Positions 91-23,291 of a DNA stretch of 37,533 nucleotides are shown here, in pieces. The first letter of the stretch is position 1. Each line of letters starts with the position of its first letter. Location of the stretch: the IMG/VR virus record IMGVR_UViG_3300045988_154301, positions 1 to 37,533 of that record; one strand, given 5' to 3'. Source of the DNA: a virus. The notes under the pieces were generated by a model. It saw only the letters and a program-made list of their open reading frames with translations, was not told the DNA's origin and ran no database searches. The position numbers and the translations under genes were made by a program.

Positions 91-118
91 GATTGTACCT
101 ATATTTGTACCCATATTT
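91..118 (+). repeat. Tandem 12-bp repeats (GATTGTACCTAT, ATTTGTACCCAT, ATTT); candidate integrase arm-type sites
   Basis: The same 12-mer, ATTTGTACCCAT, is repeated three times at 37331..37366 next to attR. An inverted GGTACA lies at 79..84. Confidence 0.6.
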
Positions 119-1251
119 CAAAAATTTAAGTTCATTTTAGACATGTAATCTTGGGCAATTTCTATATCGCTATTTTGATAATATTCAGTCATATTAACAC
201 TACTGTGCCCAAGTAAAGTTTTAGCTATTTTGTCAGGTACGTTACTTTTCATTAAAAAAGTTGCAAAATATCTACGCAAGTCATGTATTCTTATGTTAGG
301 GTTTATATTATTTTTTTCTTTAAAAGATTTCCAGCGTCTATCTATTATATTAGATGGAATACAATTACCTTTCGAATTTATAAATAACAAATTATGCTCT
401 TTGGCAAATTCGGGATTTATTAATCTTATTTTTCTTATTTCATTATTGTGAAATATTATATATTTTTTTAATTCTACTACAACTTGGTCCATAAGTGGAA
501 TACATCTTTTACTATCATTGGTTTTTAATACCTCTGTTATATAATATCCTTTACCTTTTTCAAAAGCTACTTGTTGTTTTACTTTTAAAAGCTTATTTTT
601 CAAATCAATATTTTTAGTATCGAGACCAAGCACTTCACCTAATCTTAGGCCAACACTACTAGCGATAAAAACAATCATATACAGTTGATAATCTTCTTTT
701 TTTAAAGTTTCACAAATATTTTTTAGTAAGTTATCTTTTACATGTACATGTTTTATTTTCTCTTGTTTAGGTAATTCAATAAAATCCATATAATTAGACT
801 TAATGATATGTTTTTTATATAAATATCTTACAAAACAACTAAAACAACGATTTATTCTTACAATAGATTTTTTACCATTCTTTTTAATTATATCATTATA
901 TAGTTTTTGTATAACATCATCATTTAAATCTTTAATTTTTATATTCAAAATTGGCTTTAAATGACATTTTTTAATACTTCTATAATCATTTTTTGTGTCT
1001 TCATTGCAATTAGTTTTATTGTTTAACCATATATCAAATTCCTTATCTATTGTATTATTAATTCTATCATTATTATTAGATTGAGTAAGTAGTGAATAAG
1101 GGTCAAATTCTATTTTTTTAATTAGTTCTTTTAATTTATCATTACATGCTTTTTTATTTTTATCATATACATAATTATACTTTTTTTCATAATTATTGTA
1201 TACAACACCACACCATCTATCTTTATGTTTTTTTATATGTCCTTTTAACAT
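118..1251 (-). CDS. int: Tyrosine recombinase / phage integrase
   Basis: The C-terminal motifs HDLRRYFATFL and LLGHSSVNMTEYY are typical of tyrosine recombinases. An SD GGAG lies 8 nt upstream of the ATG at 1251; the track start at 1284 lies upstream of that SD. The gene is adjacent to att. Confidence 0.9.
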   Translation of the reverse strand: MLKGHIKKHKDRWCGVVYNNYEKKYNYVYDKNKKACNDKLKELIKKIEFDPYSLLTQSNNNDRINNTIDKEFDIWLNNKTNCNEDTKNDYRSIKKCHLKPILNIKIKDLNDDVIQKLYNDIIKKNGKKSIVRINRCFSCFVRYLYKKHIIKSNYMDFIELPKQEKIKHVHVKDNLLKNICETLKKEDYQLYMIVFIASSVGLRLGEVLGLDTKNIDLKNKLLKVKQQVAFEKGKGYYITEVLKTNDSKRCIPLMDQVVVELKKYIIFHNNEIRKIRLINPEFAKEHNLLFINSKGNCIPSNIIDRRWKSFKEKNNINPNIRIHDLRRYFATFLMKSNVPDKIAKTLLGHSSVNMTEYYQNSDIEIAQDYMSKMNLNF

Positions 1252-1303
1252 TTTATCATCTCCTTTTATCTTTTGTAGTAGCACACTTAAATTATTTAAA
1301 GTG

Positions 1304-1729
1304 TTAGATCACCTCCTTAAGTTTATCTTCATATAAGTTATAAGCTTTTTCTACAAATTCAACAGTTATACCCAATTCATCGGCTATTTCAAATTTATTC
1401 ATATTTTGCATTAAAAATGATTTTAATGCTTTTTCTGGTATAATTTGATTAGCTAACCATTTGAAAGCTTTAAATTCATTTTTAGAACGTATAAGCATAT
1501 TATAATAATCATTGCAAAATGGTAGAGAAGGAGTAACACCTACTTTATAATGTGAAATTTCTTCAGCTAGTGTCATTTTTTCATTAACTCCATAAAGTTT
1601 ATTATCTAATAAAATATAATCTTCATTATCTATTTTCATATATAAACCATTTGATTTTTTTAATTTATTAGTATATGAAATATTAATATTTTCTTTATCT
1701 GCATAATTATATAAAGAATCTTTTGTCAT
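1304..1729 (-). CDS. ImmA/IrrE-like protein with a degenerate metal motif
   Basis: The layout resembles small clostridial ImmA/IrrE-family proteins: LAEEISHY where HExxH is expected, and a C-terminal ELGITVEFVEKAY helix. AAGGAGGA lies 7 nt upstream of the ATG at 1729; the track start at 1753 is a TTG upstream of the SD. Confidence 0.5.
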   Translation of the reverse strand: MTKDSLYNYADKENINISYTNKLKKSNGLYMKIDNEDYILLDNKLYGVNEKMTLAEEISHYKVGVTPSLPFCNDYYNMLIRSKNEFKAFKWLANQIIPEKALKSFLMQNMNKFEIADELGITVEFVEKAYNLYEDKLKEVI

Positions 1730-1779
1730 TTGTAAATCCTCCTTTGTAAACAAATGTTTGTTTTGAAAAGTTATATATT

Positions 1780-1809: not shown

Positions 1810-2193
1810 TTAGTTAACTTGTCCATTATTAATATAAAGATTTAATGTTGCTAATATATCACATTTAATGTTATCAGTCATTTTTCCAATGTATTTATTG
1901 CATAAAGATTTTGGGATAAATTGAATGGCTCTCATGCGAATATAAGATTCTTTTTCCAATCTATTTATTTCATCAGGTTTTATCAAAATGTCTAGACAAT
2001 GATGCTGTAATGTTTGACTTGAGAGTGGAGCAATTAATATTACATCTTCCTTTTTATCAAAATTAAAGTTAGAATGTTCTATTACTACAACAACCCTTTC
2101 ATTATGATATTTTCTAAATAAATTATTAGGAAATTTTATTTTCTCATCAGGTACTCTCCAAATAGCACCCATTTGGTATTTTTTGTTATCCAT
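1810..2193 (-). CDS. PemK/MazF-like type II toxin
   Basis: The motif order matches the MazF/PemK fold: GAIWRV, then ERVVVVIEH, then VILIAPLSSQ, then LDILIKP, then ESYIRMRAIQFIPKSLCNKYIGKMTD. It overlaps the upstream small ORF by 8 nt. Confidence 0.6.
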   Translation of the reverse strand: MDNKKYQMGAIWRVPDEKIKFPNNLFRKYHNERVVVVIEHSNFNFDKKEDVILIAPLSSQTLQHHCLDILIKPDEINRLEKESYIRMRAIQFIPKSLCNKYIGKMTDNIKCDILATLNLYINNGQVN

Positions 2194-3245: not shown

Positions 3246-3274
3246 TTGACAACTAACTAATTTGGTTGTATAAT
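3246..3274 (+). promoter_or_regulatory. Early rightward promoter
   Basis: TTGACA (3246..3251), a 17-nt spacer and TATAAT (3269..3274); a consensus sigma-A type promoter. Confidence 0.8.
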
Positions 3275-3989: not shown

Positions 3990-4274
3990 GTGATAACTAA
4001 GGAAACAAGAGCAGAGAGTAATTTAAAAGTGAAAAGAAAAATAAGATATTCACAAATAATAAATGAATTAGAAAAAGTTTATCCTAAAGGTTTATCTGTT
4101 AGGGAATTAATGAATAATTTAAATTTTAATGAAAGAAATTATATAGCACCAAGGTGTACAGAATTAAAAGATAAAGGAAAAATAGAAGAAATAGGTAAAA
4201 CTTACGACTACATTACAAATAGAGAAATTACAGTATATAGATTAGTAAAGGAAGAGGTGAAAAGTAATGTTTGA
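3990..4274 (+). CDS. Winged-helix-like DNA-binding protein
   Basis: GTG start after AGGTGA. The segment GLSVRELMNNL..YIAPRCTELKDKGKIEE resembles a MarR-type winged helix. Confidence 0.5.
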   Translation: MITKETRAESNLKVKRKIRYSQIINELEKVYPKGLSVRELMNNLNFNERNYIAPRCTELKDKGKIEEIGKTYDYITNREITVYRLVKEEVKSNV

Positions 4275-4479
4275 TTATTTAAAGAGTAAAGCTAAATTAC
4301 ACAAAGAAAAGAAAATGTTAATAGAAGAAAATTTAAAACTACAAGAACATATAAAAGCATCAAGAAAATACGAAAAATTTTTAGCAGATGAATTATTTAG
4401 ATATAAAGATGAAGTATATATCTTAAAACAAAAATTAGAAGCTACTACCGTGGAAAGTAAAACAGCTTCTAACATATAA
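4267..4479 (+). CDS. Hypothetical coiled-coil protein
   Basis: A 70-aa ORF with SD GAGGTGA. It overlaps the previous gene by 8 nt. Confidence 0.65.
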   Translation: MFDYLKSKAKLHKEKKMLIEENLKLQEHIKASRKYEKFLADELFRYKDEVYILKQKLEATTVESKTASNI

Positions 4480-4538
4480 ATATCAATTTGAAAAATACTT
4501 ATATTTATATTATATCACATATGTCAAGGGAGGTTGAA

Positions 4539-4988
4539 ATGAAAGATAGTTTTATTTTGTATTTAGAACAAAAAGAAATATTTGAAACTCTATCTGATAA
4601 CGAAGCAGGAAAACTTATAAAAGCTATATTTGAATATGAAAGCACAGGACAATCTCCTAAGCTAAGTAAGACTTTAAATTTAGTTTTTATACCTATAAAA
4701 AATGCATTAGATAGAAATAAAGAAAAATATCAAAAAGTAGTAGAAAGAAATAAAAAAAATATACGTAAAAGATGGAATAAAGAAAATACCAAAAGTACCA
4801 GTGGTAAAAATGGTATACAAAAAAATACCAAAAATACCGATAATGAACATGATAATGATAATGATAATGATAATGAACGTGATAGTGATAGTGTAAATGA
4901 TAATGATAGTGTAAGTGATAGTGATGTGCAAGCAAACAAAGAAAAAGTGTACACATTTTTGAAAGGATTTGGTAATTATGACAGTTAA
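4539..4988 (+). CDS. Conserved phage early protein (replisome-organizer N-terminal / DUF6291-like) with an acidic DN/DS-rich tail
   Basis: The ATG at 4539 follows AGGGAGG. The N-terminus, FILYLEQKEIFETLSDNEAGKLIKAIFEY, is typical of that family. The C-terminus is low complexity. Confidence 0.55.
   Translation: MKDSFILYLEQKEIFETLSDNEAGKLIKAIFEYESTGQSPKLSKTLNLVFIPIKNALDRNKEKYQKVVERNKKNIRKRWNKENTKSTSGKNGIQKNTKNTDNEHDNDNDNDNERDSDSVNDNDSVSDSDVQANKEKVYTFLKGFGNYDS
4839..4925 (+). repeat. In-frame GATAAT/GATAGT hexanucleotide repeat tract
   Basis: GATAAT x4 (4851..4874) is followed by GATAGT/GATAAT units. Together they encode DNDNDNDNERDSDSVNDNDSVSDSD. Confidence 0.8.
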
Positions 4989-11066: not shown

Positions 11067-11507
11067 ATGGAAATTAAAGAAGAATTAGAGAATTATAATA
11101 ATTATTTGGCTGAAATAAAAGCCAAAAAATATAGTATTAAAAAACTTGAATTGGAAGAAGTTACAATTTCTGGAAGTAATTTTAGCATAAATGGAGATAT
11201 AAAACCAAAAGGATATATGAGTTCTAATGTAGAAAAGAAAGTAATAGATAATACTGATAAAATAAATAGATTTAAAAAAGAAATAGAGAAATTACAAGCT
11301 AAAATTGAAATGATAGAAGGATTTATAAATATATTAAATGATGATCATAGAAGAGTTATTGAATTAAGATATAAATATAATAAATCAGATTTGCAAATAT
11401 CTAAAATAATTAATTTAACAAAGAGAGCAGTTAACAAAAGAGCAAATATAGCATTAAAAATATTAGAAAAACAGTATAATAATAAAGTTTACCTAAAAAG
11501 TACCTAA
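11067..11507 (+). CDS. ArpU/RinA-like late-gene transcriptional regulator (sigma region-4-like HTH)
   Basis: The C-terminal segment RRVIELRYKYNKSDLQISKIINLTKRAVNKRANIALKILE resembles sigma region 4. It is the last gene before the packaging module. Confidence 0.65.
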   Translation: MEIKEELENYNNYLAEIKAKKYSIKKLELEEVTISGSNFSINGDIKPKGYMSSNVEKKVIDNTDKINRFKKEIEKLQAKIEMIEGFINILNDDHRRVIELRYKYNKSDLQISKIINLTKRAVNKRANIALKILEKQYNNKVYLKST

Positions 11508-11525
11508 AGTGTTCCTAACAAAAGC

Positions 11526-11555
11526 TTGAAATTAAGTATTTAAGCATGCTATAAT
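11526..11555 (+). promoter_or_regulatory. Promoter P1 in the gene-free island
   Basis: TTGAAA (11526..11531), an 18-nt spacer, an extended -10 TGc and TATAAT (11550..11555). Confidence 0.6.
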
Positions 11556-11561
11556 ATATAA

Positions 11562-11785
11562 TAGCAGAAGGTATCGGATATGCCTTTCGCTGGAAATTAA
11601 CGTTGAGTAAGAATAGACTAGTAACTGACTTACTTTTCAATTCTCTCTTAATTGTCAAAAAAATAAAGACGATTGGTTTTAGACTTGAGAGAATTGCTAT
11701 TTTGAATGCAAACAAGGGAAACCTTAGTTTTTTTATAATCAACCTCTTATATAGCACTATCTATTATGGTAGTGCTATTATTATT
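11562..11785 (+). ncRNA. Candidate structured noncoding RNA (unclassified)
   Basis: It lies downstream of P1. Hairpins: 11574..11592; 11606..11611 with 11629..11634; a 10-bp stem CAATTCTCTC (11638..11647) with GAGAGAATTG (11687..11696); a GAAA-tetraloop hairpin plus T7 at 11714..11734; and the stem ATAGCACTA/TAGTGCTAT at 11751..11778. The overlapping ORFs are not protein-like. Confidence 0.4.
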
Positions 11786-11837
11786 CATACAAATTTCATG
11801 AGGTGTCAAACAATTTTCACAAGATTACATACAACAC

Positions 11838-11866
11838 TTGACAATGTATATCACTAATGTTATAAT
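11838..11866 (+). promoter_or_regulatory. Promoter P2, perfect consensus
   Basis: TTGACA (11838..11843), a 17-nt spacer and TATAAT (11861..11866). Confidence 0.75.
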
Positions 11867-11872
11867 GTAAGT

Positions 11873-12011
11873 ACAATAAGAAAACAATTTATGTAATCTT
11901 ATTGAACCATGACAAACTGGTTCCTTGCCGTTTGTCGCCTTGTAGTAAATAAAATTGTGCTATAATATTATCGAGAGAGTGAGCTTGGAATAATCACTTT
12001 CTCTTTTTTTT
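11873..12011 (+). ncRNA. Candidate sRNA of about 140 nt, a proposed trans-acting antitoxin for the 20-aa toxin
   Basis: It runs from P2 to an intrinsic terminator: GAGAGAGTGA (11973..11982) pairs with TCACTTTCTC (11994..12003), followed by T8. It contains a possible H-type pseudoknot (AACCA/TGGTT and GACAAAC/GTTTGTC). Two blocks, 11944..11957 and 11962..11972, are identical to 12121..12134 and 12143..12153, so they are complementary to the toxin mRNA start region. Confidence 0.5.
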
Positions 12012-12044
12012 ATTCATAATTTATAATAAAATGAGTAAAATAAT

Positions 12045-12071
12045 AATGACCTAACTTGGAATTAGGTCATT
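12045..12071. terminator. 10-bp hairpin, the likely terminator of the minus-strand toxin mRNA (possibly bidirectional)
   Basis: AATGACCTAA (12045..12054) pairs with TTAGGTCATT (12062..12071). On the minus strand it is followed by ATTATTTTAC. Confidence 0.6.
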
Positions 12072-12081
12072 TTGCGAAGAA

Positions 12082-12144
12082 CTATTTTAACAAAACTTTT
12101 GCAAGAATTGTTAAAACAACAGTAAATAAAATTGCTTCAGCCAT
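12082..12144 (-). CDS. Type I toxin candidate, a 20-aa hydrophobic peptide (MAEAILFTVVLTILAKVLLK)
   Basis: It is not in the ORF track. A strong SD, AAAGGTGGTGA, ends 6 nt before the ATG at 12144. It has its own promoter and terminator. Confidence 0.55.
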   Translation of the reverse strand: MAEAILFTVVLTILAKVLLK

Positions 12145-12179
12145 AATATTATCACCACCTTTCTATGATGGCTAATAAT

Positions 12180-12209
12180 ATTATAACACTTGCTAATATA
12201 GCAAGTCAA
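12180..12209 (-). promoter_or_regulatory. Promoter of the toxin gene, with a palindrome in the spacer
   Basis: On the minus strand, TTGACT (12209..12204), an 18-nt spacer and TATAAT (12185..12180). The spacer contains the 8-3-8 palindrome ACTTGCTA-ATA-TAGCAAGT (12188..12206). Confidence 0.65.
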
Positions 12210-12236
12210 CAAAATCAGACAATAAAAAAATACAAT

Positions 12237-12262
12237 GTAGTCCAAGATTGGGCTACTTTTTT
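12237..12262 (+). terminator. Intrinsic terminator just upstream of the late operon
   Basis: GTAGTCC pairs with GGGCTAC (7 bp including one G-U) and is followed by T6. Confidence 0.6.
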
Positions 12263-12307
12263 AATGCTTATTTATGAGCAAATGAGTAATAAAAAGGTAG
12301 TGATACT

Positions 12308-12478
12308 ATGACAAAAGAAGAATATCGAAATTATCTGTGTAAACATTGTATAAGATACAATTGTAAAGAAAATATATGTGAATTAGATAAAGATACATAC
12401 AAAGTATATAAATGTACTGAATATGTATCTATTTTTATGTGCAATAAAAGAAATTGTAGAGAGTGTGGGAGATGTTAA
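12308..12478 (+). CDS. Small Cys-rich protein (56 aa, 10 Cys)
   Basis: It is not in the ORF track. The ATG at 12308 follows AAAAGGTAGTGA. Sequence: MTKEEYRNYLCKHCIRYNCKENICELDKDTYKVYKCTEYVSIFMCNKRNCRECGRC. Its stop overlaps the next start (TAATG). Confidence 0.55.
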   Translation: MTKEEYRNYLCKHCIRYNCKENICELDKDTYKVYKCTEYVSIFMCNKRNCRECGRC

Positions 12479-12873
12479 TGAAATTCGAGATAAACAATAC
12501 GATATGGACGATCGAAAAAGTTGATGAAGCAACAATTAATAATGAAATGAAATCAGATGGAACACTAGGAGTAACAATATTTAAAAATCAAAAAATAATG
12601 TTGCTAAAAGACCAAGCAAATATAATTAAGACTTTAAAACACGAACTAACTCATGTGTGGTTGTATGAGTATGGACATAATCAAAATGACAATAAGACAT
12701 TTACATACGAAGATGTATGCGAAATTGTGGCGAGTTTACATGATTTTATAAGTGAAGTAGTAGAACAATATAAAGAACAAAATCAATCTTATATAGAAAG
12801 ATTAAAGAAAAATCACAAAGATGATTATATAGATGCAATAAGATATGCCGTACAGTCACCAAAAGGAGAATGA
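12478..12873 (+). CDS. HExxH metallopeptidase-like protein (SprT-like)
   Basis: LKHELTHVWLYEYGH carries the zinc motif. The ATG at 12478 is coupled to the upstream stop; the track start at 12463 is a GTG. Confidence 0.6.
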   Translation: MKFEINNTIWTIEKVDEATINNEMKSDGTLGVTIFKNQKIMLLKDQANIIKTLKHELTHVWLYEYGHNQNDNKTFTYEDVCEIVASLHDFISEVVEQYKEQNQSYIERLKKNHKDDYIDAIRYAVQSPKGE

Positions 12874-19351: not shown

Positions 19352-19690
19352 ATGGATACAAAATTTTGCAAACACTGTGGTGAAAAAATACCAGCAGATG
19401 CAATAATATGTACTAAATGTGGTAGACAAGTGGAAGAATTAAAACAAGAAAGACAAAATATAGTAATTAATAATAGTAATGTTAATAATAATGTAAATCA
19501 GGCGGCAGGAAAAGCAAAAAACAAATGGGTATCTTTAGTATTGTGTATTTTCACAGTGTGCGGACACAAATTTTATGAAGGAAAAATTGGAATGGGAATA
19601 ATATATTTATTCACAGGAGGATTATTTGGAATAGGGTGGTTAATAGATATAATATCATTATTATTTAAGCCAAATCCATATTATGTATAA
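19352..19690 (+). CDS. Zinc-ribbon plus TM2-domain membrane protein (moron)
   Basis: An N-terminal CKHCG..CTKCG zinc ribbon is followed by the C-terminal TM2-like segment GHKFYEGKIGMGIIYLFTGGLFGIGWLIDIISL. SD AAGGAGA, with terminators downstream. Confidence 0.7.
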   Translation: MDTKFCKHCGEKIPADAIICTKCGRQVEELKQERQNIVINNSNVNNNVNQAAGKAKNKWVSLVLCIFTVCGHKFYEGKIGMGIIYLFTGGLFGIGWLIDIISLLFKPNPYYV

Positions 19691-19729: not shown

Positions 19730-19803
19730 GCAAATTTAGTGTAATGGTAGCACAACAGTCTCCAAAACTGTTAGTAATAGTTCAAATCTATTAATTTGTG
19801 CCA
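19730..19803 (+). tRNA. trnW: Phage-encoded tRNA-Trp (anticodon CCA)
   Basis: It folds by hand into a cloverleaf: acceptor GCAAATT/AATTTGT (G1-U72), D arm GTGT-AATGGTA-GCAC, anticodon arm ACAGT-CTCCAAA-ACTGT, variable loop TAGT, T arm AATAG-TTCAAAT-CTATT, discriminator G and encoded CCA. Total length is 74 nt. Confidence 0.85.
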
Positions 19804-19834: not shown

Positions 19835-19901
19835 ATGCCTCAAAACATGTTCTGGGGCTAATCAGATCAGCATGGGGGAATTTTCCAAGGAGGTACAAAA
19901 T

Positions 19902-20510
19902 ATGGAAAATGTAAAAGAAGAAAACGTAGATACTCAGACTACGGCAGGTAACGATGTTCAAAAAACTAATGAACAGGAAAAAACTGAAAAAAAAGGCGAG
20001 GGGGAGAAAACTAAAAAGGTAGCACAAAAAAGTGATGATGGCTCAATAGTTTTCAAAAATCAGGATGAGTTAGACGGATTTATTAGAAGAATGTATGCGA
20101 AAGGTGCTGAAAAAGCAGAACAAGGTGCAACTTCTAAACAAGTTCAAGAAGCTCAAAATAAGCAAGAGGATAAAGGACAAGAAGAACAAAAAGAGACTGC
20201 TCAAACAGACTATACTGACAAAGTAGCACTTGCTATGGCCAAAGCTGGTGTAGATGTCAAAAAAGTTGAAAGAGCAGCAAGATTAGTTGATATGTCAAAA
20301 GTTCTAGAAAACGGTGTATTAGATGCTAAAAAACTAGAAGACGAAATCAACGCAGTAATTTCTGAATTTCCTGAGTTAAAAATAGCAAAGGAAGAAGAAA
20401 AAGAAGAAAAAGGATTTAAGTTCGGAGCAACACAAAGTAACTCTGACGAAAATCAAAAAAACAAAAAGCCTGTAGCCACAAAAAGATGGAACAGGTTTAA
20501 TTCATTTTAG
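19902..20510 (+). CDS. Capsid scaffolding protein
   Basis: The ATG at 19902 follows AAGGAGG. The protein is acidic, E/K-rich and helical, and lies immediately upstream of the major capsid gene. Confidence 0.7.
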   Translation: MENVKEENVDTQTTAGNDVQKTNEQEKTEKKGEGEKTKKVAQKSDDGSIVFKNQDELDGFIRRMYAKGAEKAEQGATSKQVQEAQNKQEDKGQEEQKETAQTDYTDKVALAMAKAGVDVKKVERAARLVDMSKVLENGVLDAKKLEDEINAVISEFPELKIAKEEEKEEKGFKFGATQSNSDENQKNKKPVATKRWNRFNSF

Positions 20511-22878: not shown

Positions 22879-23291
22879 TGATAGCAAGAATTAGTGTATC
22901 TAAAATAAGAGATTATTTAAAAACTATTATTACAGATTGCCCAAAATGGTATATAGGCCAAATGGATGAAAATCAAGATAAAGCAATTGCCTTATATGCT
23001 AATCGTAGACAATTAGAAGATAATTCTAAATATAAAAAGTTGAAAAGTTATGGAATATTACCAGTTACATTACTGTTAAGATGGACTAAAAATTATAATA
23101 TGGCTGAAACAATGGCCAATAAAATTTATGAACTACTAGATTGTAGTTCTTTTTTTATTGATGATTATAATTGCTCAATTGAGTGCTTATATAATGGCCC
23201 TATTGATTTAGGAGCCGATGAAAACAATGTTTATAAGTTTTCAATAGAATTTAATTTATTATATAGAAAGGGTGAAAATAATGGCAACTAA
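22878..23291 (+). CDS. Tail completion protein
   Basis: A 137-aa ORF coupled to its neighbours, immediately upstream of the major tail gene. Confidence 0.5.
   Translation: MIARISVSKIRDYLKTIITDCPKWYIGQMDENQDKAIALYANRRQLEDNSKYKKLKSYGILPVTLLLRWTKNYNMAETMANKIYELLDCSSFFIDDYNCSIECLYNGPIDLGADENNVYKFSIEFNLLYRKGENNGN

Follow-up and report, generated by a model that had tools for sequence, protein, structure and literature searches.

The par locus of Enterococcus faecalis pAD1, in which RNA I is the toxin mRNA and RNA II the antitoxin, combines convergent promoters, direct repeats over the translation initiation region, a kissing contact between terminator loops and a 5' stem-loop (PMC7472228). Type I toxin-antitoxin (TA) pairs are also carried by the Clostridioides difficile prophages phiCD630-1 and phiCD630-2 (CD0977.1-RCd11 and others), where they stabilise the prophage and employ toxins of 34-47 aa (PMC7699646). 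In the control of phage late genes, the activators RinA, LtrC and ArpU each recognise, without cross-reaction, three 7-nt repeats immediately distal to their own gene (PMC3753634). The present analysis concerns the island between a late regulator gene and the late genes (positions 11515-12307) of the IMG/VR virus record IMGVR_UViG_3300045988_154301, whose whole analysed stretch of 37,533 nt is referred to as the window. We assign a probability of about 0.7 to the reading that takes the island as the late operon's 5' leader, into which a type I TA cassette has been inserted; on this reading it is ordinary in kind, namely a phage moron with a type I TA pair inside a late-operon leader. The anatomy of the cassette and its covariation are read directly from metagenomic relatives, and it is from these that we infer its function.

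Modular organisation of the island

Relatives were gathered through the downstream SprT-like gene, conserved DNA words and the exact first late protein, and 21 distinct haplotypes of the intergenic slot (designated by L and a number) form the comparison set. Eight of them (L081, L086, L088-L090, L103, L106 and L110) join position 11748 straight to 12236 and, because these two positions abut there, the 487 bp between them in the window are an insertion; the distance from the conserved 3' element to the terminator-like hairpin T4 is 35-38 nt without the cassette versus 523-693 nt with it. As judged from these junctions, the island is composed of two modules, a late-operon leader (11490-11748 and 12236-12307) and the inserted cassette (Table 1). 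The backbone of the slot follows a fixed order, starting with a regulator gene (at least four types), a type-specific sequence, a TG-extended -10 with a second hexamer and the motif GGAAATTAAC, and continuing with a variable cargo, the 3' element (core CAAGGGAAACCTTAG), the optional cassette, the T4 hairpin with its T6 run, a Shine-Dalgarno (SD) sequence and the first late gene. The sequence 5' of the -10 changes with the regulator type, whereas the part from the -10 to the late ATG is common to all types. Cargo type and cassette allele assort independently, and L106 has the cargo of the window and no cassette.

This division alters the picture given by the sequence-only reading, which had listed three strong promoters (P1, P2 and P3) and four terminator-like hairpins. 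All of these exist where it had placed them, together with a fourth near-consensus promoter-like site (minus strand, 11809..11780) that it had not listed. Specifically, a terminator scan calls three of the hairpins (+11751..11778, +12237..12256 and -12071..12045), while the hairpin at 11973..12003 with its U8 tail escaped the scan because its loop is 11 nt long, and folds at -13.6 kcal/mol. What does not stand is the interpretation of the island as a single terminator array with small regulatory transcripts, since three of the four hairpins (11751, 11973 and 12045) and two of the three promoters (P2 and P3) are on the insertion that 8 of the 21 haplotypes lack; because these three hairpins lie there with the P2 and P3 units, most terminators of the island would belong to the cassette's own transcription units. 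The accompanying statement that the island has no protein-like open reading frame (ORF) is essentially right, but the 20-codon ORF that had been set aside is the key coding element. Two mechanical ORFs of 80 aa (minus strand) and 84 aa (plus strand) were rejected, as both run across the 11749 junction of the cassette and neither is intact in relatives.

The candidate toxin-antitoxin pair

The cassette contains two convergent promoters, of which P2 is the stronger by consensus match (12/12 versus 11/12 for P3). P3, with a predicted start at ~12173 and a 29-nt 5' untranslated region (UTR), would make an mRNA of ~130 nt for a 20-aa hydrophobic peptide, whose strong SD (AAAGGTGGTGA, plus-strand 12152-12162) lies 7 nt before the ATG. 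P2 would make a small RNA (sRNA) of ~140 nt, in which a conserved 5' stem-loop (to ~11910) precedes a second, variable hairpin, followed by a stretch for toxin recognition (11944-11972) and the terminator. The recognition stretch is a DNA direct repeat of 12121-12153, with AGTAAATAAAATTG exact and GC(T/C)ATAATATTATC carrying one G-U-compatible change. Two generic hallmarks of a type I TA pair are found together: a small hydrophobic ORF with its own ribosome-binding site and an adjacent RNA gene complementary to the toxin mRNA.

The relatives show that this complementarity follows the peptide. At the same position, the window and four further alleles carry five unrelated minus-strand ORFs of 20-30 aa, all with a strong SD, their own promoter and terminator, a grand average of hydropathicity (GRAVY) of 0.87-1.90 and mostly basic C-termini. 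P2 is retained together with the initial ~40 nt of the sRNA, and the remainder of the sRNA is exchanged jointly with the entire toxin gene. Each sRNA, just 5' of its terminator, repeats the start-codon region of its own toxin: local-alignment scores of sRNA against toxin mRNA are 39/32/28/36/26 for the cognate pairs and at most 27 for the non-cognate ones, the cognate score is the maximum in every row, of 120 permutations the cognate diagonal scores best, and pairing falls on the start codon or just 3' of it. Moreover, the sRNA terminator loops present motifs of 6-8 nt (CUUGGAA, UUUGCCGA, GGGCAAA, GUUGGCGC and CUGGGA) that are perfectly complementary to the apex of the cognate toxin-mRNA terminator, with 7/8/7/8/6 nt of complementarity in the cognate pairs versus at most 4 nt in the non-cognate ones. 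RNAduplex on full-length RNAs was dropped, as the AT-rich sequence gives long spurious duplexes with no cognate preference, and local alignment and loop analysis were used instead. In all five alleles, the 5' end of the toxin mRNA is predicted to pair with the SD or the AUG, the unpaired probability of the SD being 0.04-0.67 depending on the assumed transcription start.

In the mechanism that we propose, the two RNAs would make first contact through their complementary terminator loops (CUUGGAA/UUCCAAG), and pairing would then extend over ~30 nt covering the SD-proximal region, the AUG and the first codons of the toxin, so that translation would be blocked. The T1 hairpin at the left edge of the cassette, which travels with it and is half-deleted in L015 and L084, would end the ~220-nt P1 RNA and insulate the cassette. 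Late transcription from P1 would traverse the toxin gene in the antisense direction, and in lytic growth this would silence the toxin. Prophage addiction or stabilisation, or else defence, are the likely roles of such a cassette.

The resemblance to par/Fst covers the convergent promoters, repeats (11944-11972/12121-12153) that span the toxin translation initiation region, a predicted first contact through complementary terminator loops and a small hydrophobic toxin-like peptide with a charged C-terminus; a 5' stem-loop hiding the SD may be a further likeness, in a predicted fold that depends on the transcription start. In contrast to par/Fst, the locus has two separate terminators ~33 nt apart (11973-12011 on the plus strand and 12071-12045 on the minus strand) in place of a shared bidirectional one, and their loops stay complementary through a second direct repeat; the recognition stretch is in the 3' half of an sRNA of ~140 nt, whereas RNA II is ~40 nt; and the conserved 5' stem-loop of the antitoxin is common to five different toxin alleles. 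Unlike the Fst/Ldr toxins, the peptides of 20-30 aa have no PXXXG motif and no Pfam match, and that of the window lacks proline. The cassette would therefore work like par without being filed in the Fst family, because its terminators are separate and its toxins are not Fst-like. The pairs of phiCD630-1/-2 share with it the setting in a prophage of low-G+C gut clostridia, the small hydrophobic toxin and the RNA silencer (predicted here), but show no sequence similarity to it, and the cassette here sits in a late-operon leader. It would represent a new par-like type I TA family from uncultured gut clostridial phages, following the par principle in a different build, and its five allelic pairs, with kissing loop and start-codon cover exchanged jointly as the two sites of RNA contact, amount to a natural experiment on specificity and could serve as a template for orthogonal RNA regulators.

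The same RNA logic could serve a peptide that is not an addiction toxin but a phage-specific membrane peptide (a lysis-timing or holin modulator, a superinfection-exclusion factor or an abortive-infection effector) silenced by the sRNA until needed. This would suit the hydrophobic character of the 20-30-aa peptides, their lack of a family assignment and their placement in the late leader, where late read-through shifts the balance between sense and antisense RNA. We regard it as unlikely, since the interchangeability of five unrelated peptides fits generic membrane-damaging toxins better than binding to a specific partner, and late transcription antisense to the peptide gene argues against a late function in lysis.

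Putative late promoter, leader cargo and read-through

The 146-aa regulator matches phrog_36 ("transcriptional regulator") at 8e-18 and PF04545 (Sigma70_r4) at 1.7e-4, the latter below cutoff, in keeping with the sequence-only reading, which had called it RinA-like. A PDB sequence search with the regulator returned nothing useful, no Q-family protein is among its Pfam, NCBIfam, PHROG and PDB sequence matches, and its exact protein sequence is not on record. The end of its gene is overlapped by three direct heptamers, which are putative binding sites of the regulator by analogy with RinA and Ltr; no second triple of this kind (at least 19/21 matches) exists in the 37.5 kb of the window. Relatives with other regulator types have other repeats here, namely TTGATAG twice with TTGAACC, or ACCCGAA/TCCCAGT/TCCCACT. 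P1 follows the heptamers, and its homologues in relatives have a poor -35 and retain the extended -10 alone; in the slots without a cassette these homologues are the only plus-strand promoters. The unique repeats, their change together with the regulator, the shared region from the -10 onwards, the analogy with Ltr and the status of the P1 homologues in cassette-free slots jointly suggest that P1 is a regulator-dependent late promoter, which the regulator would activate by binding the three heptamers at the end of its own gene. The likeness to RinA, LtrC and ArpU (PMC3152322, PMC3753634) thus comprises a sigma-70 region-4-like C-terminus, a gene directly 5' of the late promoter, and three 7-nt direct repeats at the gene end that co-vary with the regulator between phages, while the locus departs from their terS promoters in its weak family match and in the 750-nt non-coding leader, holding RNA cargo, TA cassette and terminators, before the first late ORF.

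A second TATAAT (11557-11562) begins one base past the -10 of P1 (11550-11555), and tandem -10-like hexamers are kept in all related slots, with any regulator type, as TATAATaTATAATagc or TATAATtagTATAGTga; they may serve as alternative -10 elements or as a pause element that depends on sigma. The leader motif GGAAATTAAC is present in every related slot. The transcript from P1 would comprise this conserved leader, a variable RNA cargo, and then the 3' element and T4 before the first late gene. In the window the P1 RNA (229 nt) folds at -57.5 kcal/mol (z -3.95) and contains the 10-bp stem 11638-47/11687-96, so that the sequence-only description of a highly structured first RNA holds, as does its failure to place this RNA in a known family: an Rfam search of 11400-12450 at E up to 10 returned noise matches only, with no family at threshold. 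The ~220-nt species of that reading would be the terminated form of the late leader.

The cargo of the window is a ~100-nt double hairpin found in 7 haplotypes, with or without the cassette, whose second hairpin is bipartite, with the 10-bp stem outside (11638-11647/11687-11696) and a further stem within it (11648-56/11668-76); pairing is retained in 145 of 145 pair cells, one change being compensatory and three of the wobble type, the 5 sequences being too few for significance. In sister phages the same place is filled by a ROOL RNA (RF03087, 310-314 bits; PMC5737381, PMC12286853) followed by two tRNAs, situated between the regulator-adjacent promoter and leader and the 3' element with T4, ahead of the late genes; the ~220-nt P1 RNA of the window has no match to the ROOL model. 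A blastn search of the ROOL slot against INPHARED gave tRNA matches only. ROOL, an RNA of giant size that forms cages, is thereby placed immediately after a RinA-type late promoter and ahead of the packaging genes, together with tRNAs, and this placement predicts the time and manner of its synthesis. In at least 6 haplotypes the ROOL slot holds a non-coding cargo of ~450 nt, which matches no Rfam family at gathering thresholds, gives a weak match to manA RNA alone (E 0.011, 19.5 bits) and, as a single sequence, folds no more stably than shuffles do (z -0.98); this could be a phage RNA that has not yet been described. The 3' element is present in 21/21 haplotypes with any cargo, forms a weak hairpin (-5.6 kcal/mol, z -1.2) and is possibly a weak terminator or a processing site.

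The stems and T6 run of T4 are invariant across all haplotypes and its loop varies in sequence and length (5-6 nt), which favours an RNA hairpin or terminator. A protein-binding palindrome or a promoter is less likely at this site, given the same pattern of variable loop and invariant stems and the fact that the region from T4 to the late ATG is the same for all regulator types. No promoter-like site was found between 12257 and 12308, in agreement with the sequence-only reading, and because the late genes lack a promoter of their own, polymerase from P1 must read through T4 and, in the window, also through T1 and the sRNA terminator. By analogy with the RinA, LtrC and ArpU late promoters, P1 is very probably the place where late transcription begins, with the hairpins in its path, and read-through or antitermination from P1 is a reasonable inference from the sequence. 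Leaky termination, antitermination mediated by the regulator (lambda-Q-like) and antitermination mediated by the leader RNA (put-like) are the possible routes; the late genes would be expressed by polymerase from P1 that passes T4 through leaky termination or terminator resistance. A search by eye found no pairing of GGAAATTAAC with the 3' element and no antiterminator alternative to T4. The question raised is how polymerase transcribing the late genes of a Gram-positive phage gets past the one to four intrinsic terminators that lie in their leader.

It is also conceivable, though less likely than not, that the leader behind a RinA/Ltr-type promoter is a dedicated, terminator-bounded slot for RNA cargo, in which polymerase from P1 is made terminator-resistant by the regulator or by the leader RNA. 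If so, the arrangement would parallel lambda Q/PR'/6S or HK022 put in a Gram-positive setting; ROOL, the tRNAs and the ~450-nt RNA would be "late-leader RNAs" made at the onset of packaging, with the 220-nt RNA of the window as a minimal version; and the TA cassette would exploit the slot, late read-through turning the toxin off.

A further explanation dispenses with the TA function and takes the island as a single regulatory region, with constitutive promoters, short terminated RNAs and RinA-like antitermination on the model of lambda Q/PR'/6S RNA/tR'. The architecture is indeed similar, as in both cases the regulator gene abuts a strong promoter, here an extended -10 with an adjacent second -10-like hexamer, and a short RNA (~220 nt in the window) ends at terminators before the late genes, the last of them conserved and followed by no promoter. 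The likeness is one of architecture: the regulator shows no Q homology, and the second hexamer is found at about -5..+1 and thus outside the initially transcribed region. As two promoters and three hairpins are carried by an insertion missing from many related phages, they cannot form the core late switch, and the five-fold co-variation of sRNA and small ORF would be left unexplained. We consider this explanation improbable for the island as a whole, although its antitermination part may still hold from P1 to T4.

Weighing of the evidence, neighbourhood and further features

Several observations weigh against a late leader with an inserted TA cassette. On the side of the leader, the match of the regulator to the RinA family TIGR01636 (1.3e-5, 25.4 bits) falls below the curated cutoff of 31.9, the repeats are weaker in phages with other regulator types, and P1 of the window resembles a strong sigma-A promoter (5/6 in the -35), so that it could be constitutive and merely drive a terminated non-coding RNA operon; T4, as its stems never vary, has no covariation support. 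On the side of the cassette, the sRNA matches no Rfam family, the five peptides match no toxin family in Pfam and NCBIfam (E up to 10 or 1), the L098 column includes a non-cognate score at the translation initiation region of 27 against a cognate score of 26, and the covariation rests on five alleles because cassettes are nearly identical within each of them.

The density of signals in the island was compared with shuffled sequence. Sites with at least 11/12 sigma-A matches number 8 in the whole 37.5 kb, 4 of them in the island, whereas 500 dinucleotide shuffles of the island give 0.09 on average and never more than 2. The other four are at 3246-3274 (plus strand, at the lysogeny/early boundary), 23287..23258 (minus strand) and 36919-36947 (minus strand) with 36995-37024 (plus strand), a divergent pair near the right end. 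Between 10500 and 13500 the scan finds 4 terminator-like sites versus 0.4 expected from shuffles. The hairpins T1, toxin-mRNA terminator and T4 have z between -4.2 and -6.4, and the P1 RNA, sRNA and toxin mRNA reach z of -3.95, -5.08 and -3.81 against shuffled controls. That the island is a chance product, an AT-rich recombination joint with functionless hexamers and hairpins, would suit a genome of ~25% G+C in which loose promoter-like sites (at least 9/12) are not enriched between 10500 and 13500 (24 versus 23 expected from shuffles), but is effectively refuted by these counts and folds, by the two-site cognate complementarity in five alleles and by an architecture kept in 21 haplotypes. The plus-strand purine skew typical of the flanking genes drops away across the island.

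Table 1. Features of the island, its alleles and its surroundings; positions refer to the window unless a haplotype is named.
Feature	Position	Strand	Remarks
Integrase	118..1284	-	
Early/replication block			
Regulator gene	11067..11507	+	146 aa; stop codon ends 11507
Three direct heptamers TACCTAA/TACCTAA/TTCCTAA	11490, 11501, 11512 (span 11490..11518)	+	11-nt period
P1, putative late promoter	11526..11555	+	TTGAAA-18-TATAAT, TG-extended, 11/12
5' leader of P1 RNA	11562..11601	+	predicted hairpin 11562-11592, then motif GGAAATTAAC 11592-11601
Short cargo RNA	11602..11697	+	hairpin AGTAAG/CTTACT, then long bipartite hairpin
Conserved 3' element	11698..11748	+	core CAAGGGAAACCTTAG at 11713-11727, then T-run
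Inserted cassette (moron)	11749..12235		487 bp
T1 hairpin	11751..11778	+	11 bp, U-rich interrupted tail; cassette left edge; -15.2 kcal/mol
Unexplained promoter-like site	11780..11809	-	TTGACA-18-AATAAT, 11/12; cassette's conserved left arm
P2, sRNA promoter	11838..11866	+	perfect consensus 12/12, TG-extended; conserved in all five cassette variants
Antitoxin-like sRNA	11872..12011	+	~140 nt; fold -38.5 kcal/mol, z -5.08
sRNA terminator	stem 11973-82/11994-12003, loop 11983-93, U8 12004-11	+	CTTGGAA at 11984-90
Toxin mRNA terminator	12071..12045	-	-12.9 kcal/mol, z -6.4; apex UUCCAAG (plus-strand CTTGGAA 12055-12061)
Toxin-like ORF	12144..12082	-	MAEAILFTVVLTILAKVLLK, 20 aa + stop; GRAVY 1.90
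Predicted target site on toxin mRNA	12121..12153	-	mRNA nt 23-55, AUG at nt 32 (12144-12142)
P3, toxin promoter	12209..12180	-	TTGACT-18-TATAAT, TG-extended, 11/12
T4 terminator-like hairpin	12237..12262	+	GTAGTCC-loop-GGGCTAC plus T6; -11.1 kcal/mol; 45 nt before first late gene
Conserved 5' UTR, SD and ATG of first late gene	12263..12310	+	SD AAAAAGGTAGTGA; ATG at 12308
Small late genes	from 12308	+	
terS	13300		
terL	13845		
Toxin-like allele, window and L095			MAEAILFTVVLTILAKVLLK, 20 aa
Toxin-like allele, L087 type			MTEFTDFIVAITGLLTIIYTIIVFFSNKLK, 30 aa
Toxin-like allele, L084			MVENIILIVVLIFFIRELKH, 20 aa
Toxin-like allele, L093			MFLFIVFVNAITDFINAISNFISIIRKHK, 29 aa
Toxin-like allele, L098 type			MEDVTTLLNAVAYVLCSLAILIKAIKKRY, 29 aa
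ROOL loci	L088:815-1388, L090:2371-2944	-	also L101, L102, L108, L111
~450-nt non-coding cargo	L086:~4090-4540	-	G+C-richer; also L001/L081, L087, L095, L103, L107, L110, L112

The window is AT-rich temperate phage or prophage DNA and its source is a gut Clostridium-type prophage. The closest relatives at the DNA level are viral and metagenomic contigs from the human gut, a scaffold of "Clostridium sp. CAG:465" and a metagenome-assembled genome of an uncultured Clostridium, and a blastn search of the island against INPHARED phages gave 0 matches. Just 3' of the island lies a gene for an SprT-like zinc metallopeptidase (HELTH motif, 12463-12873, plus strand), which is common to at least 80 viral contigs (L001-L080). 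The slot motifs occur in only 3 of the contigs with this gene and are all missing from the other 77 viral loci, so that the region 5' of the SprT-like gene would be a recombination hotspot.

The minus-strand promoter-like site in the left arm of the cassette would yield an RNA antisense to the late leader, and its -10 is deleted in L015 and L084. A near-copy of the T1 hairpin (AGCACTAC-CTATTTT-GTAGTGCT plus TTTT) is found at 1779-1807, where it is plus-oriented and terminator-like among the minus-strand lysogeny-side ORFs 1304..1753 and 1810..2193. Lastly, Rfam at gathering thresholds on the whole window matches nothing in the island and detects a tRNA-Trp alone (CCA anticodon, 67.7 bits) at 19730-19803 on the plus strand, within the morphogenesis genes, between the ORFs 19352..19690 and 19872..20510.

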